Of a stretch of 64,000 bases of DNA, positions 18,001-24,000 are shown piece after piece. The DNA is taken from the NCBI RefSeq assembly GCF_050320075.1, contig NZ_CP190018.1; one strand, given 5' to 3'. This DNA is from Escherichia coli (GTDB lineage Bacteria > Pseudomonadota > Gammaproteobacteria > Enterobacterales > Enterobacteriaceae). Made by a program: the position numbers. Within the stretch, counting starts at the first letter, position 1; every line of letters begins with the position of its first letter.

Positions 18001-21000
18001 TTCTCTGCCGGCAGATGCAAAAGGCGACAAAAGAATATCTCTCAACCCAGAGCCGGAAATTAAAACAGTCAACCCGTCGTGCAAGAGCTGCGATGTTTCG
18101 TGACGGCTGGGTTTATGGGGTGCGTGATGTGGTGGATGTATTCCGGCTCACAGAAGATGAGACGTGTGTAATGAATACGTGGCTGCAGAACCAGCAATTT
18201 GAGGGAATGGTCGTCTTCCGGGAGGTAAAGGACTGCTATGGCGGTGACCATGCACGCTGGCAGGGATACAACGAGGGGAAAAAGGCAACGCTGCATCACG
18301 GTGTTGATTCCCGGGATCTGAGACCGGAAAGCCTGATATCGGGCGGAGGTGAGGTATGAGTAATAACTTGTCACAGGCCACCAACGGACTGTTGATGCAA
18401 CTGGTGATGGATCTCAAAAGTGGCTATCTGCGCCGCTGTGAAGCGCTGGGGCTTTCCCGGGAAGAAATGCAGATGCTGCAGGGGCTGAGTATTGAGGAAA
18501 TTCACTATCTGTCAAATTCAGAGGTGTCAGTGCTGCGGCTGGATATTAACCACAATAACCTTGTACGCATGCTGCAGCAGGCCAGGACTGAACAGAAACG
18601 CCTGCAGCGAATCGATCGCGCTCTGGCACTGGGGGGATCGATTGAGCTCATGGCGTTTTATTTTGGCCTTTCCAGTGTGGACGTTGCTGCACGGCGCCGT
18701 ATTTCAGGTATTGATGTGCGCCCGGGGCGGGGTATCACACTCAGCGATGATGAAAACTCTGAACTCTGGAGACTGTGGCAGAAAGCAGGGATTAACGATG
18801 TGGAGAGCGCTGACGGGCTGGATGTCATGATGCTCTGTGCAGAGCAGATGAATATCCCGCTCACAGCCGTCTGGCATGCTGTCCGGGGGTGGCATACAGC
18901 CGGAAGCCCTGAACAGGTAAGGAATGCGTCATGAAGATGAAAGAGCTGGTTCCCGGTCTGCTGAGCTGTCCCGGGGTACCGCCAGCCTGCCAGCGGAAGG
19001 CGGTGGACCTCGTTAACCGGTTTCGTCGCGGGGAGAGGAATTACCATGAACTGAAGGAAAAGGGATTCGGGTATATCAAGATTAATGTTGGTCCGGACTG
19101 GCGGTTACTGAGCAGGAACCGGGGACGAACCTGGGCACTGTTGAGTCACGAGCGATACAACAACATGAGGCTGAGGTAGAGAAAAATGACTGATTTTGGT
19201 TCAACTAAATATAACGCCAGTTTTGAAGAATGGCATGAAGTGTTAATGGACTATGCCGGGTTACGTGGTGGAAGTGCCGCCGATGCCGAAGCATGGCGCG
19301 ATGACTATGAAGCTGGAAAAACGCCTGTCGAAGCATATTGCGATGAGTGGGGTGATGAATGAGCAAGTATGAATGCGAGACGCTGGCAACTGAGAATGCG
19401 AAGCTGAAGACAGCACTCCCTCAACTGTTCGGGAAAGCTGAAGGAGCGACAAAATGAGCAAGCCAACCGACGAAGAAATAGTTCGGGTGTTGGAAGAACA
19501 CGGGCGCTGTATGACTTACGTCGTGACCAACTGGCTTAGGGATAAATATCGCACACTCAAAACGGCATACGTTTTGCGTCGTCTAAAGAAACTGGAGTTC
19601 GACGGGAAAGTAAAGCGTGTTACCAGTTCTTATATAAGACAAATTTGCTGGGAGGCAACCAGTGAGCAAGATTGACTATCAGGCACTGCGTGATGTGGCA
19701 GTGAAAGCCGGTGAAGATAAGTGGCAGGCTAAAAAAATAAACGGTGATTTTTTCGTTATTCGTCAAGGTAGTTATACAAGACAGCATGGCTACACATCGT
19801 ATCAACCCATTGCGGAGATTGATTGTAAGCCAGTCCGGGATTTTGTTGCCAGGGCTAATCCGGCTACCGTGCTGGCTCTGCTGGATGAACTGGAAGCAGC
19901 AAAACAGCATATCGCCGAGTTGGAGTCTCGCATCGTCACCGCTGCCGCCGCTGACGTACTGGCTGAGCGCCAGCGTCAGGTCACCGTAGAGGGCTGGACA
20001 CCTGAACGTGATGATGAATACACCGATGGGGAACTTCCGAGGGCCGCGAGCTGTTATGCGCTAATGGCATGGCGCGAGGAGTGTCTGAGCGATGGTGAGT
20101 ATACCGCCAGCCAGAAAGCCATTCCGTATTACTGGCCATGGGATCCGGCATGGTGGAAACCCATCGACCCGCGGTGTGACCTGGTAAAAGCTGGCGCGTT
20201 AATTCTGGCAGAAATCGAACGCATCGACCGTGCCGCTGGCATTCGCACCAAAGGAGAGTGATATGGCGTTAACACACCGCGAACTCTGTCAGATTGCGTA
20301 CAAGTTCCTTAAGCGCAACGGGTTCAAGGTTTGTTTTCATGACCGCTTTATAGCTGTAACCAGTACCGGAGAACAACCAGATGCTATGGGATTCAGAAAT
20401 TCAGCATCATGCCTGATAGAGGCGAAGTGTTCTCGTGCTGACTTGTTGGCAGACAGAAAAAAGCGTTTTCGTAAAAATCCGTCTCTTGGAATGGGCGACT
20501 GGCGATTCTTTATTAGTGAGCCGGGAATTATTTCAGTTGAGGATTTACCACCTGGCTGGGGATTACTTCACGTTGTTAACGGAAGAGTACGGAAAGTACA
20601 TGGGTGGCCCAGGGGTAATTGCTGTTGGGGTAATCCTGACGATAAGCCATTTACTGGAAATAAGCAGGTTGAATGCGATTACATGTTATCTGCATTAAGG
20701 CGAATGGAGTTGAGAGGGCACCTTAATGAAATATATGACGGTGTAATTGTTAATAAGAAAGAAGGAAACGCGGCATGATCACTATTACCAAAGAGCGACT
20801 GCTGACAATCAAGCAGTGGCGCGAAACATACGGACCGGGTAGCAACGTTGTACTGCCAGCAGAAGAAGCGGAAGAACTGGCACGGATTGCACTGGCATCG
20901 CTGGAAGCGGAACCGGTGGCGTGGATGTGTGATGACGAAGATGGTCGTGAATATAACGGTCATAACGAGTTTTCTTATGGAAGACGCGGGATTCCCCTTT

Positions 21001-24000
21001 ACGCCGTCCCGCCAGCGCCGAATGGATTGGTTAAAGCCGTGGCTTTCTATGAGCAGGTTAAACGTGAAAATCCGCCAGTTGAAACGGGAGCATGGAAAGA
21101 TGCCGTTGACTGGGTGCTTAAACAAGCTTGTCAGTCTGTAAACACTGGCATCAATGAAAGAAGAACAATTGAAGAAAATGACGATTGAGCTGGAAGCTGC
21201 AAAAAAGCGCATTGCTGAACTGGAGGAGCGTCGGTCATGAGAAAAATCAGTGGAATGTTGAACCTGGAGAAGGCCAGGATGCAGTTGCATGTTTTGTTAT
21301 CAGGACCGGTTCCTGCAATCACTCCGATGGCGCATGCCGTGGCAATAAAAGTTGTGCTTGATGCTCTGGATGCGAGTGAGCGGAGGGTGGCAGAACTGGA
21401 ACAGGCCTGCGCTGCCGCTGGCATTCGTATCAAAGGGGAACAAGTGAAATGAAACTGAAGATGCAGGCAATGGACGGCCCGGTGATTATAGAAAGTAGTG
21501 ATGTGACACAGTTTTACCCTGACCATGAAAGTGGCGGGGAACTCACAGCTGTTGAGTACCTTGCTGACGGGGGAAGAATCACCGCGAGGGTGAGGCACTC
21601 TTTTTATCAGGTTGCTGCGGCACTTGCCGGGGCATGGCGTGCGGATGATGCGTCAAAAAGCGGTGGGTGAGGACTGTGCCGGAATGAGTGTCTGTTCCGA
21701 AGCTGCTGAGCCGCGACATAAATTTTTTATGTTGCGGTGAAGCAGCCGACAAACGAAGAGCGTCAGCGTATCAACAGTTAAGGAAAATATCTTCTGAAGC
21801 CGGACGCGACAGTCAGTCCGGTGGTGCTCGTGTGGTGAAGTGTTTAGCCTGCATCTTTGACAGGGTTCAGTTATAAGCATTTCGGAAACCGTTCCCCGGC
21901 GCAGTCTGCCGGGATTTAAGGAGTTTATTTATGGCGCTACCTGCAGAAAGCCTTATTGCGCATACGCTCAGAAAAATGAAGGCCAGCATGGCAGAGAAAG
22001 CCAGTCGTGAGGACGGGAGGATACGCAGTGGGCTGTTGTTTACCGGCAATGTTCACGATTCGTATCCCCGCAGGCTGTTGCTGGATACGCGCCTTTCTCC
22101 CCTGGATAAAACTGCGTGGATGATGATTCGTCTGCATGCCCTGAATAATGAGGGCGCAGTCTTTCCGACGTACGATGAACTGCAGTTACAACTGGCATCT
22201 CCCGGCTGCGGGAAGGCGTCCCGTGAAACAGTGAGCCGTGTGCTGACAATGCTGCGGCTTACGGGCTGGCTGAGTCTGTGTAAGCGGGTCAGGGATGAAA
22301 AAGGGCGGGTCCGGGGGAATATTTACGCCCTGCATGATGAGCCACTGACCTGCTGTGATGCAGAAAAGTTTGACCCACGATACCTGGATATGGTTCTGGA
22401 TACTGTGAGCAGGAGCCGGAACAAGACAATCCGGCACACAGCCAGTGAAGTGCTCAGCGATATCAAAAATGAGCCCGGTATGCGGCATTACCACAGCCAT
22501 ATCACTCTGTTTGAATCGCGTATGGGGGCTGCACAGACGCCGGTTCAGCTGGCGGCGCGTCAGCGGGTGAACCCGATGGTGAATGAAAACACAGGCAGAG
22601 AGAGTGGTTCGGATTCCGTACATACCCCTGCACCTGTCGTGCAGGTAAACGAACTCAGTGATCCATTAATCGAACTCAGTGAAAAACAGGAAATGAGCCC
22701 ACTCAGTTCGGATTCCGTACCACCTGGAAAATCAGCAACTTATCACTCAGTTCGGAAAACGAACAATTACGTACGTAATATCACACACAGTGTGATTAAA
22801 AATACGTACGTATTGCCTGAGTCGGTGAAATCGCAAATCAGCGCAGAAGACACGGACATGCTGACAAAACAACTGCAGGCATTGCCGGAAGAACTGGCAG
22901 GTAGTGTGCTGAGCAGCCTGTCACAGATGCTCAGCAAAAACACGCTCCAGAATCCGGTTGGCTGGATGCTGGCTGTGATGAAACGTGCGCGTGAGGGGCG
23001 TTTTAATACGCCGGATATGTCCGTGCATGAATCCCGGTCGCCAGCCCGTGCACCATATCAGCCAGTGTACAACCGTGATGAACGTGAACGTCGTCGCGGG
23101 AAAGTGGCGTCACCTGAAACGGTGAGCAACATTGTCGCAGAATTCCGGGCCAGCCTGAAACGTGCAAATGCTGCCCGTCTGGCGGCGCGTGTTTGATGTT
23201 AAAAATCACACGGTGTTGCCAGTGGCAACAGCGATTAAAAAATGTACGGTGTTGCCAGTGGCAACAGTGGTTAAAAAATGTGCGGTGTTGCCAGTGGCAA
23301 CAGTGGTTAAAAAATGTGCGGTGTTGCCAGTGGCAACAGTGGTTAAAAAGTGTACGGTGTTGCCAGTGGCAACAGTGGTTAAAAAATATCCGGTGTTGCC
23401 AGTGGCAACAGTGGTTAAAAAATATCCGGTGTTGCCAGTGGCAACAGTGATTAAAAATCGCGCGGTGTTGCCAGAGGCAACAGTGGTTAAAAAGTGTGCG
23501 GTGTTGCCAGTGGCAACAGTGGTTAAAAAGTGTACGGTGTTGCCAGTGGCAACAGTGGTTAAAAAATGTGCGGTGTTGCCAGTGGCAACAGTGGTTAAAA
23601 AGTGTGCGGTGTTGCCAGTGGCAACAGTGGTTAAAAAATGTGCGGTGTTGCCAGAGGCAACAGTGGTTAAAAAGTGTACGGTGTTGCCAGTGGCAACAGT
23701 GGTTAAGAAATATACGGTGTTGCCAGTGGCAACAGTGGTTAAAAAGTGTGCGGTGTTGCCAGTGGCAACAGTGGTTAAAAAGTGTACGGTGTTGCCAGTG
23801 GCAACAGTGGTTAAAAAATGTGCGGTGTTGCCAGTGGCAACAGTGGTTAAAAAGCGTGCGGTGTTGCCAGTGGCAACGGTGGTTAAAAAATGTGCGGTGT
23901 TGCCAGTGGCAACAGTGGTTAAAAAGTGTACGGTGTTGCCAGTGGCAACAGTGGTTAAGAAATATACGGTGTTGCCAGTGGCAACAGTGATTAAAAATTG

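Follow-up and report, generated by a model that had tools for sequence, protein, structure and literature searches.

Why should the replication region of an integrative conjugative element (ICE) in Escherichia coli hold a tightly packed run of small genes that resemble those of a phage? The question arises from a 64-kb stretch of E. coli contig NZ_CP190018.1 (here, the window), in which an earlier sequence-only reading had described a phage-like accessory module between a DUF2786 gene and a replication gene. We listed open reading frames (ORFs) over positions 17000 to 24500 and read the sequence over positions 18700 to 21900; positions 18931 to 21670 form a single tight gene string on the plus strand. 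All nine plus-strand starts given in that reading are present, and ATGA overlaps make up most of the junctions. Its left neighbor needs correcting: the gene directly upstream encodes a DUF2857 protein (18356 to 18934, plus strand; PF11198, E 5e-66), and the DUF2786 gene sits one gene further left. The answer that we consider probable is that the string fills a cargo slot in an activation and replication operon of the BisDC type, that this slot has been stocked from the lambdoid gene pool (chiefly exo-xis) and reshuffled at gene ends that are doubly constrained, and that the products probably act on host or prophage physiology.

The slot lies between a bisC homolog, the DUF2857 gene, and a gene for an STY4528-family island replication protein (21931 to 23196, plus strand, as annotated in an identical record by the Prokaryotic Genome Annotation Pipeline [PGAP]). 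A search with positions 18356 to 23196 returned 53 E. coli records with both flanks, among which we distinguished eight cargo variants and compared seven relatives. The genes for DUF2857, a ParE_like protein, a 71-amino-acid (aa) protein, the last 73-aa protein, and STY4528 are present in all of those compared, and everything from 19186 to 21237 is variable. The cargo of the other variants is also of phage type and includes further Ea22-like genes, a DUF7446 gene, a Mom-like DNA modification gene (XF1762 family, phrog_1384; positions 2300 to 2791 of record L006), and, in two variants, an annotated HNH endonuclease gene (positions 1605 to 1970 of L008 and L009). Outside E. coli, the slot is empty in ICEHin1056 and in Pseudomonas aeruginosa pUM505, where STY4528 directly follows DUF2857. 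It holds the ParE_like gene only in Pantoea and in the metagenomic ICE relative L015, in which an STY4528-type gene comes directly after ParE_like; it holds ParE_like and two more genes in Salmonella and nine to fourteen genes in E. coli. This comparison gives a graded filling of the slot (empty, one, three, and nine to fourteen genes). In the history that we propose, the slot would have been empty in the basic design, the Enterobacterales branch would have added the ParE_like gene, and Salmonella and, above all, E. coli would have filled it with genes common to the accessory regions of lambdoid and Shiga toxin (Stx) phages, chiefly those of the early-left exo-xis region. The added genes would comprise an Ea22-like gene whose product has an alpha-helical C-terminal domain (CTD), an MmcB-like PD-(D/E)xK protein, a 137-aa protein of the type that neighbors DUF551 genes, and several small proteins.

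Kinship with phages is evident for most of the string. Matches to PHROG families were obtained for eight of the nine listed genes (for the 71-aa product only weak ones) and none for a 32-aa ORF. At the DNA level, positions 19651 to 19924 and 20244 to 20920 are 94 to 97% identical to exo-xis regions of Stx phages, and phage Stx2_EH0505 carries the same modules at 80 to 97% identity. Like the lambda/Stx exo-xis region (early-left, pL; ea22 plus variable downstream genes), the slot has an Ead/Ea22-like gene whose product combines an N-terminal domain with a putative coiled coil and a CTD that can be exchanged, the same 171-aa gene (gp08 in phage TL-2011c) with DUF551-type neighbors at 94 to 98% DNA identity, and small, tightly packed genes with partial duplications (PMC8614690). 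It differs in that it sits in an ICE operon after bisC and not between a prophage's exo and xis, and in that the module order is permuted relative to Stx2_EH0505. Furthermore, the conserved exo-xis block orf60a-orf63-orf61-orf73 was not detected, as no product of the string matched a TraR/zf-dskA-type or other named family. The description of the string as a phage-like accessory module is therefore supported by the PHROG and Stx phage DNA matches but not for the ParE_like, 71-aa, and last 73-aa genes, which belong to the ICE backbone and are not phage imports. In phages, the exo-xis genes belong to the early, dispensable set and modulate the choice between lysis and lysogeny, with Ea22 favoring lysogeny (PMC10834534, PMC8614690); the products of the slot would act on host or prophage physiology in the way that exo-xis genes do for phages.

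Where the variants part company is also informative. Breakpoints cluster at four places (19651 to 19701, 20228 to 20234, 20775 to 20919, and 21139 to 21224), and the eight cargo variants, with breakpoints at repeated motifs, directly show the modular recombination among Ea22-like genes that had been proposed from the sequence. The first cluster is a left linker (19651 to 19701, plus strand) that comprises the Shine-Dalgarno (SD) sequence and first codons (MSKIDYQALR) of Ea22-type genes; it occurs once or twice per ICE variant with 90 to 98% identity and is followed by differing sequences. A right linker (20228 to 20265, plus strand) contains the codons of an AGIRTKGE tail, a stop codon, and the start of the 171-aa gene, and it holds the SD sequence AAAGGAGAG; breakpoints fall at 20228 to 20234 in four ICE variants and two phages. 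The third patch, the 145-bp start of the 137-aa gene (20775 to 20919), is present twice in strain SF-088, 831 bp apart, and given this duplication, recombination between two SF-088-type copies appears to have produced the window allele. The Ea22-like proteins of the window and SF-088 are both 199 aa long and 26% identical, with only their first and last residues shared, which on comparison of the sequences identifies the difference as a cassette replacement between conserved ends.

Why these ends should be conserved may be explained by the way in which the string is read. The genes overlap by ATGA at 18931, 19359, 19454, 20775, and 21449 and also at 21237 (with a 28-aa ORF); of the other junctions, that at 19662 is a 14-nucleotide (nt) overlap, and two are gaps, of 1 nt at 20262 and of 6 nt at 19180 to 19185. 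SD pairing at the starts of the string is −5.7 kcal/mol or lower (background mean, −3.1), except at 21154 (−1.5). For the 171-aa gene, the SD sequence is AAAGGAGAG, i.e., the KGE codons of the Ea22 tail, with a pairing energy of −8.7 kcal/mol; that of the gene at 21449 is AAAGGGGAA, within a second tail at the end of the 71-aa gene; and that of the 71-aa gene is GGAGGAG, within the ELEE codons of the 28-aa remnant. The string would thus be translated as one coupled unit, with the SD sequence of each gene in the last codons of the preceding one. As the tail codons double as the SD sequence of the next gene, gene ends would be conserved by serving both as a C terminus and as a translation start, and they would offer ready patches of homology. 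We propose four such patches: the 5′ end of Ea22, its central coiled coil, the AGIR(T/I)KGE tail, and the opening 145 bp of the 137-aa gene. It is here that cassettes would be exchanged, doubled, or lost, with homologous recombination involving resident lambdoid prophages as the likeliest mechanism, and the 32-aa and 28-aa ORFs would be scars of such events. The modular theory of phage evolution holds that novel joints form at conserved linker sequences. The slot resembles the linker boundaries of lambdoid mosaics in having novel joints at gene boundaries, in short sequences conserved among otherwise unrelated alleles. It differs from them in that its patches are common to a conjugative element and prophages and in that the 3′ patch can be explained by the double duty of tail and SD sequence.

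The string contains two DNA repeats. One, which holds the two tails, relates positions 20206 to 20257 to positions 21388 to 21439 (52 nt, 75% identity), and the other, in the coiled-coil patch, relates 19886 to 19925 to 21186 to 21225 (40 nt, 78%); the core motif of each occurs exactly twice in the window and never in 100 shuffles, the patterns having been derived from the same sequence. Two products had been thought to end in the same tail. The repeat is real, but the second product ends in AAGIRIKGEQVK, three residues (QVK) after the tail, which is therefore not terminal there. More widely, the tail (A/V)AGIR(I/T)KGE ends 79 of the 120 best Ea22-family matches irrespective of the preceding domain, the CTDs being unrelated.

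The gene upstream of the first tail (19662 to 20261, plus strand, GTG start) encodes a 199-aa protein whose proposed Ea22-like identity is borne out: residues 2 to 94 match Ead/Ea22-like PF13935 (E 2.7e-15; 57.6 bits against a cutoff of 27). Within the putative three-part build, its N-terminal and LLDELEAAK..IAELE segments are common to Stx phage Ea22 proteins. The CTD (residues 95 to 199) forms a separate, all-alpha fold in the AlphaFold2 model; its pattern, ERQRQ..EGWTP.HDD..CYA..WPW..WWKP..RRDLVKAGALILAEIERIDRAAGI, marks a domain family that recurs on different N termini. It has no Pfam match, and neither the whole protein nor the CTD profile gave a sequence match in the PDB. The label of DUF550-like (DUF550 being Pfam PF04447), which the sequence-only reading had attached to genes of the string, was rejected, as Pfam gave no match for any slot product at an E value of ≤1 or for 15 homologs of the Ea22-like CTD at an E value of ≤10. 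In lambda Ea22, the solved CTD structure is mixed alpha/beta (PMC10834534), unlike the all-alpha CTD of the slot protein, and homology between the two domains was not supported.

The ParE_like gene opens the string (18931 to 19179, plus strand). Its 82-aa product matches PF24732 (ParE_like; E 2.4e-19; 69.5 bits against a cutoff of 24.4) and phrog_1525. The gene comes directly after DUF2857 in E. coli and also, with identity falling to as low as 41%, in Salmonella, Pantoea, and metagenomic relatives; the two genes overlap by 4 nt in Salmonella (66% identity) and the metagenomic relatives (47% and 41%), with a 45-nt gap instead in Pantoea. Codon differences number 28 synonymous and 12 to 14 nonsynonymous, consistent with purifying selection. 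Phage relatives are distant only (≤46% identity), with no close phage DNA match, and we regard the gene, from its distribution, as ICE backbone of the Enterobacterales branch and as the first occupant of the slot. A word-indexed homolog search had given only 8 close relatives; the exhaustive search used instead yielded a family of 45 representative clusters, in whose alignment R58, H73, and Y76 near the C terminus are nearly invariant.

Could this gene be the functional core of the locus? If the ParE_like product were a toxin neutralized by BisC/DUF2857 or by the adjacent 58-aa protein, the slot would be a toxin-antitoxin (TA) addiction module that stabilizes the ICE or arrests the growth of transfer-competent cells, with the phage genes as passengers. 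The strength of the Pfam match, the conserved place after DUF2857 with its 4-nt overlap, and the purifying selection would all suit such a module, as would the three conserved residues, which recall RelE/YoeB-type active sites. The gene is also small, named ParE_like by Pfam, and tightly coupled to its neighbor, as ParE/RelE toxins of type II TA systems are. However, the family profile showed no similarity to E. coli RelE, YoeB, or RK2 ParE (hhalign probability of <1% for all three, against manually entered target sequences), and no toxin was among its PDB matches. Its sole PDB matches, all marginal (E ~0.5), arose because the conserved core LLSxDxGxxW mimics a hairpin motif found in sialidases, the Asp box (BNR). 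A weak resemblance to RelE/HigB toxins, noted earlier for this product, thus stands as membership in the Pfam ParE_like family and falls as profile similarity to RelE, YoeB, and ParE. Nor was an antitoxin recognized beside the gene: the neighbors are the 192-aa DUF2857 protein, a transcription activator subunit and as such unlike the partner of a canonical toxin, and the 58-aa protein, which matches no antitoxin family. DUF2857 was rejected as the partner of phage ParE_like genes, as the gene upstream of the homolog in Murrayvirus phages is unrelated to it. NCBIfam held no family for any slot product and PADLOC gave no match for any of them, and ParE_like is missing from ICEHin1056 and pUM505 despite their having the same backbone. 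An addiction module is, on balance, an unlikely account of the slot.

The 171-aa protein (20263 to 20778, plus strand) is the best characterized of the phage-type products. It belongs to phrog_9263 (E 1e-122) and is 99% identical over its full length to Stx phage genes, including gp17 of TL-2011b and gp08 of TL-2011c, the latter gene lying between exo and xis. Members of the family are typically about 171 aa long and lack any Pfam domain. Across 42 aligned homologs, D40, E53, and K55 are invariant (pattern PD...ExK). The AlphaFold model is confident (predicted local distance difference test score, 89; predicted template modeling score, 0.83) and shows an alpha/beta core in which P39-D40 lie at the start of the strand formed by residues 41 to 45, with E53 and K55 at the C-terminal end of strand 48 to 54, K55 being one residue past it. 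The PD-(D/E)xK motif arrangement that had been read from the sequence was thus borne out in both fold and motif, and the model identifies the protein as a predicted nuclease of the restriction endonuclease fold with a complete catalytic motif. The closest structure is MmcB-like (3dnx), a fragment of which scores as Pfam MmcB-like PF06319 (E 2e-8). The relation is a structural one, as the 171-aa family had no match to PF06319 at an E value of ≤1, and its profile reached only an E value of 0.55 against the 3dnx sequence. The two have the motif G..D...IExK.SR.D..AD.K in common, whereas the 171-aa family has an additional conserved GMGDWRF / GWGLL / C-terminal helix region. MmcB belongs to chromosomal SOS regulons, and the 171-aa family differs in being found in phages and ICEs. 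A literature search for MmcB/DUF1052 returned nothing relevant.

In every ICE copy (positions 21333 to 21979 of L001; also L002 and L005 to L007), PGAP treats short pieces of the 171-aa and 137-aa ORFs as pseudogenes, calling them “frameshifted” or “incomplete.” These labels are wrong: both ORFs are full length and 99% identical to intact phage genes. The 171-aa gene differs from its ICE relatives by 15 synonymous but only 1 or 2 nonsynonymous codon changes; we conclude from this pattern that it is intact and under selection. An alternative GTG start at 20230 (giving 182 aa) was rejected, as its SD pairing is +0.1 kcal/mol, versus −8.7 kcal/mol for the ATG at 20263.

A nuclease fold with an intact catalytic triad also invites the idea of a defense or counterdefense island, in which the PD-(D/E)xK, Mom-like, and HNH proteins would act on incoming phage DNA or protect the entering ICE DNA, comparable to antirestriction genes in the leading regions of plasmids. 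At the same place, sister variants do carry the Mom-like and HNH genes, the turnover of cargo is high (eight variants), and genes for ssb and topoisomerase III are nearby. Still, the lack of any PADLOC match speaks against such an island, and the same genes reside in exo-xis regions of temperate phages with no documented defense role there; we consider this explanation improbable.

What the slot does would depend on when it is expressed, and here the flanking operon offers a guide. The interval matches E. coli YZLc1-3 and two further genomes at 100% identity, and the element is an ICE of the SPI-7/pKLC102/ICEclc family at tRNA-Ser. In the annotated identical record (PGAP), tRNA-Ser is followed by genes for ParA, a hypothetical protein, an SPI-7-type DnaB (dnaB-PI), ParB, DUF2786, and DUF2857 and then by the slot string; 3′ of the slot, the order continues with the gene for the STY4528-family protein and those for PFL_4669, topoisomerase III, STY4534, and ssb, with the conjugation genes beyond. 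ICEHin1056, pUM505, Pantoea, and Salmonella have their operon genes in this same order. The ParB-family and DUF2857 genes stand in a single plus-strand string with the ICE replication genes, as expected of a BisDC-type operon. The DUF2857 protein itself gave a weak match to FlhD and, in PADLOC, a weak match to DrmC. In ICEclc, BisD is a ParB-type protein and BisC a DUF2857 protein, together forming the activator that locks cells into transfer competence, and mapping of the PalpA transcript shows that it extends past bisDC into the gene that follows (PMC7423338). The E. coli operon resembles the ICEclc bistability generator (alpA-parA-shi-bisD-bisC) in the succession of a ParB-type and a DUF2857 gene, in having genes downstream of bisC that in ICEclc are in the same transcript, and in the downstream set (STY4528 type, PFL_4669, topoisomerase III, and ssb). 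Unlike ICEclc, the E. coli ICE has a DUF2786 gene between ParB and DUF2857, and it carries the ParE_like gene and the phage-derived string after bisC. Consensus scans of positions 17000 to 23000 predicted no promoter-like or terminator-like sites on the plus strand. Given the ATGA coupling of the ParE_like gene to the 192-aa bisC homolog, the ICEclc transcript, and these scans, cotranscription of the slot with bisC is plausible by analogy, and the string would probably be transcribed with the BisDC-type operon when the ICE is switched on.

A bolder version of this idea is that the slot is a host takeover set switched by BisDC in the few transfer-competent cells, with ParE_like as a growth arrest effector (the role of Shi in ICEclc) and with the exo-xis genes and the nuclease keeping lambdoid and Stx prophages uninduced during ICE replication and transfer. 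We regard this as a long shot; if true, it would link ICE transfer to the control of Shiga toxin phages.

Two observations concern the same operon in relatives. In L015, a zf-dskA_traR gene (positions 4099 to 4350) replaces DUF2786 between ParB and DUF2857, and in the exo-xis block of lambda, a TraR-like gene (orf73) is located next to ea22; the overlap between ICE activation operons and early-left regions of phages may thus go beyond the genes described for this slot. The PFL_4669-family protein carries the Pfam AcaB domain (PF08900) in L011 (12560 to 13258), L012 (11680 to 12378), and L015 (6905 to 7603), which are homologous to positions 24235 to 24960 of the window. AcaB is a transfer activator of IncC plasmids, and the domain hints at a second regulator in the operon.

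The remaining genes of the slot are small. The 58-aa protein (19186 to 19362, plus strand) matches the C-terminal part of phrog_519 (E 4e-22); its gene is confined to the variants of the window, L002, and L005, and the others have a DUF7446 gene instead. The first of two 73-aa proteins (19454 to 19675, plus strand; phrog_9799, E 9e-43) has weak matches to winged helix-turn-helix Pfam families and to phrog_2440, a family of transcriptional regulators, and is possibly a small winged-helix DNA binder. The 137-aa protein (20775 to 21188, plus strand; phrog_660, E 1e-42) is a mosaic: its first 48 codons (20775 to 20919) are the recombination patch common to DUF551- and ea22-type genes of phages, and its middle part (residues 79 to 126) recurs in Ea22-like genes of other variants. 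Read-through from this gene into the 71-aa gene, which is in the same frame, was rejected because of a further in-frame TGA at 21216 to 21218. The 71-aa gene (21237 to 21452, plus strand), whose product has the Ea22-type tail, is found in 7 of 7 E. coli relatives (90 to 96% aa identity) and is fused in L008 and L009 as the C-terminal part of a 168-aa protein; its sole phage DNA match is a 45-nt coiled-coil patch, and its PHROG matches are weak (E 0.003 to 0.04). The last 73-aa protein (21449 to 21670, plus strand; phrog_5994, E 7e-26) is likewise present in 7 of 7 relatives (79 to 100% aa identity). From this conservation and the lack of a close phage DNA match, we assign the last two genes to the E. 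coli ICE backbone. Minus-strand ORFs of 96 to 203 aa across the region had no PHROG match and no annotation and were treated as spurious, and an Rfam scan of positions 17000 to 24500 gave nothing credible.

Both micro-ORFs that had been noted are present, but they appear to be scars and not a designed feature. In the 32-aa ORF (19359 to 19457, plus strand), residues 5 to 32 correspond to residues 43 to 70 of the 70-aa product of an Ea22-like mini gene in SF-088 and Br_112, so that the ORF equals the mini gene minus codons 4 to 42, a 114-nt in-frame deletion. As its SD sequence (−8.9 kcal/mol) and the ATGA coupling at both ends are kept, it may still be translated, perhaps as a coupling relay only. 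The 28-aa coiled-coil remnant was confirmed at 21154 to 21240 (plus strand) and not at 21150 to 21236, where it had first been placed. It has 78% DNA identity to the Ea22 coiled coil and only weak coiled-coil PHROG matches, and since it has no effective SD sequence (−1.5 kcal/mol), it is probably an untranslated orphan fragment. One could read these two scars, together with the PGAP labels and the roughly equal numbers of nonsynonymous and synonymous differences in the 71-aa, 73-aa, and 137-aa genes, as signs that the slot is mostly decaying junk, i.e., prophage gene fragments that illegitimate recombination brought in and that do nothing for the ICE, but the intact and selected 171-aa gene, the strong SD sequences and tight coupling of all real starts, and an uninterrupted string that keeps frame over 2.7 kb make this very unlikely.

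Several points weigh against the cargo slot that we favor as the explanation. Recombination at the patches is inferred from the positions of breakpoints, and the direction of transfer could be from phage to ICE or from ICE to phage. The pro-lysogenic role of Ea22 has been demonstrated for the lambda and Phi24B proteins only (PMC10834534), and these carry CTDs unlike that of the slot protein. In the 71-aa and last 73-aa genes, synonymous and nonsynonymous counts are roughly equal, so parts of the string may be decaying. Finally, cotranscription with bisC rests on the analogy with ICEclc and on negative consensus scans.

Other features of the window lie outside the slot. Starting 15 bp past the stop codon of the STY4528-family gene, positions 23211 to 24130 contain 25.6 copies of a 36-bp unit (91% match), each with the palindrome TGTTGCCAGTGGCAACA. 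PGAP calls a hypothetical protein across this array, and the ORF annotated there is 579 nt long in SF-088 versus 966 nt in the identical record. The array resembles a set of iterons or other protein-binding sites and may be an origin or a group of ParB/BisD sites. At about 29100 to 32750 (30167 to 33815 in L001), the IS66-family element ISCro1 (tnpA, tnpB, and transposase) splits a gene for an Rpn-family recombination-promoting nuclease inside the ICE. Across tRNA-Ser from the ICE, a kps capsule cluster of group 2 type (about 1 to 12600; 1 to 13675 in L001) includes a family 29 glycosyltransferase (sialyltransferase-like); a fragment of IS110 separates the two.

Mosaic phage-like genes in variable regions of ICEs are a known phenomenon, and RefSeq already carries the Ea22-like and ParE_like labels. 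New here are the link to the Stx phage exo-xis region, the placement of the slot after bisC, the breakpoint map, the explanation by SD sequences in gene tails, the fold assignment of the 171-aa protein and its rescue from pseudogene status, and the pairing of bisC with ParE_like. Current views are not overturned, and the practical value lies mainly in better annotation and a defined hypothesis. Two untouched protein families come into view: the widespread MmcB-like PD-(D/E)xK protein and the ERQRQ...WPW...WWKP helical domain carried by many Ea22-like proteins. Work on the genes expressed at ICE activation could start from the conserved pairing of bisC with ParE_like and from the graded series of slot fillings. 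If the reading of the locus as a cargo slot is right, conjugative elements and the lambdoid and Stx prophages of the same E. coli hosts would share a pool of early accessory genes, exchanged at short, doubly constrained gene ends, which would give genes a tangible path between these two kinds of mobile elements.

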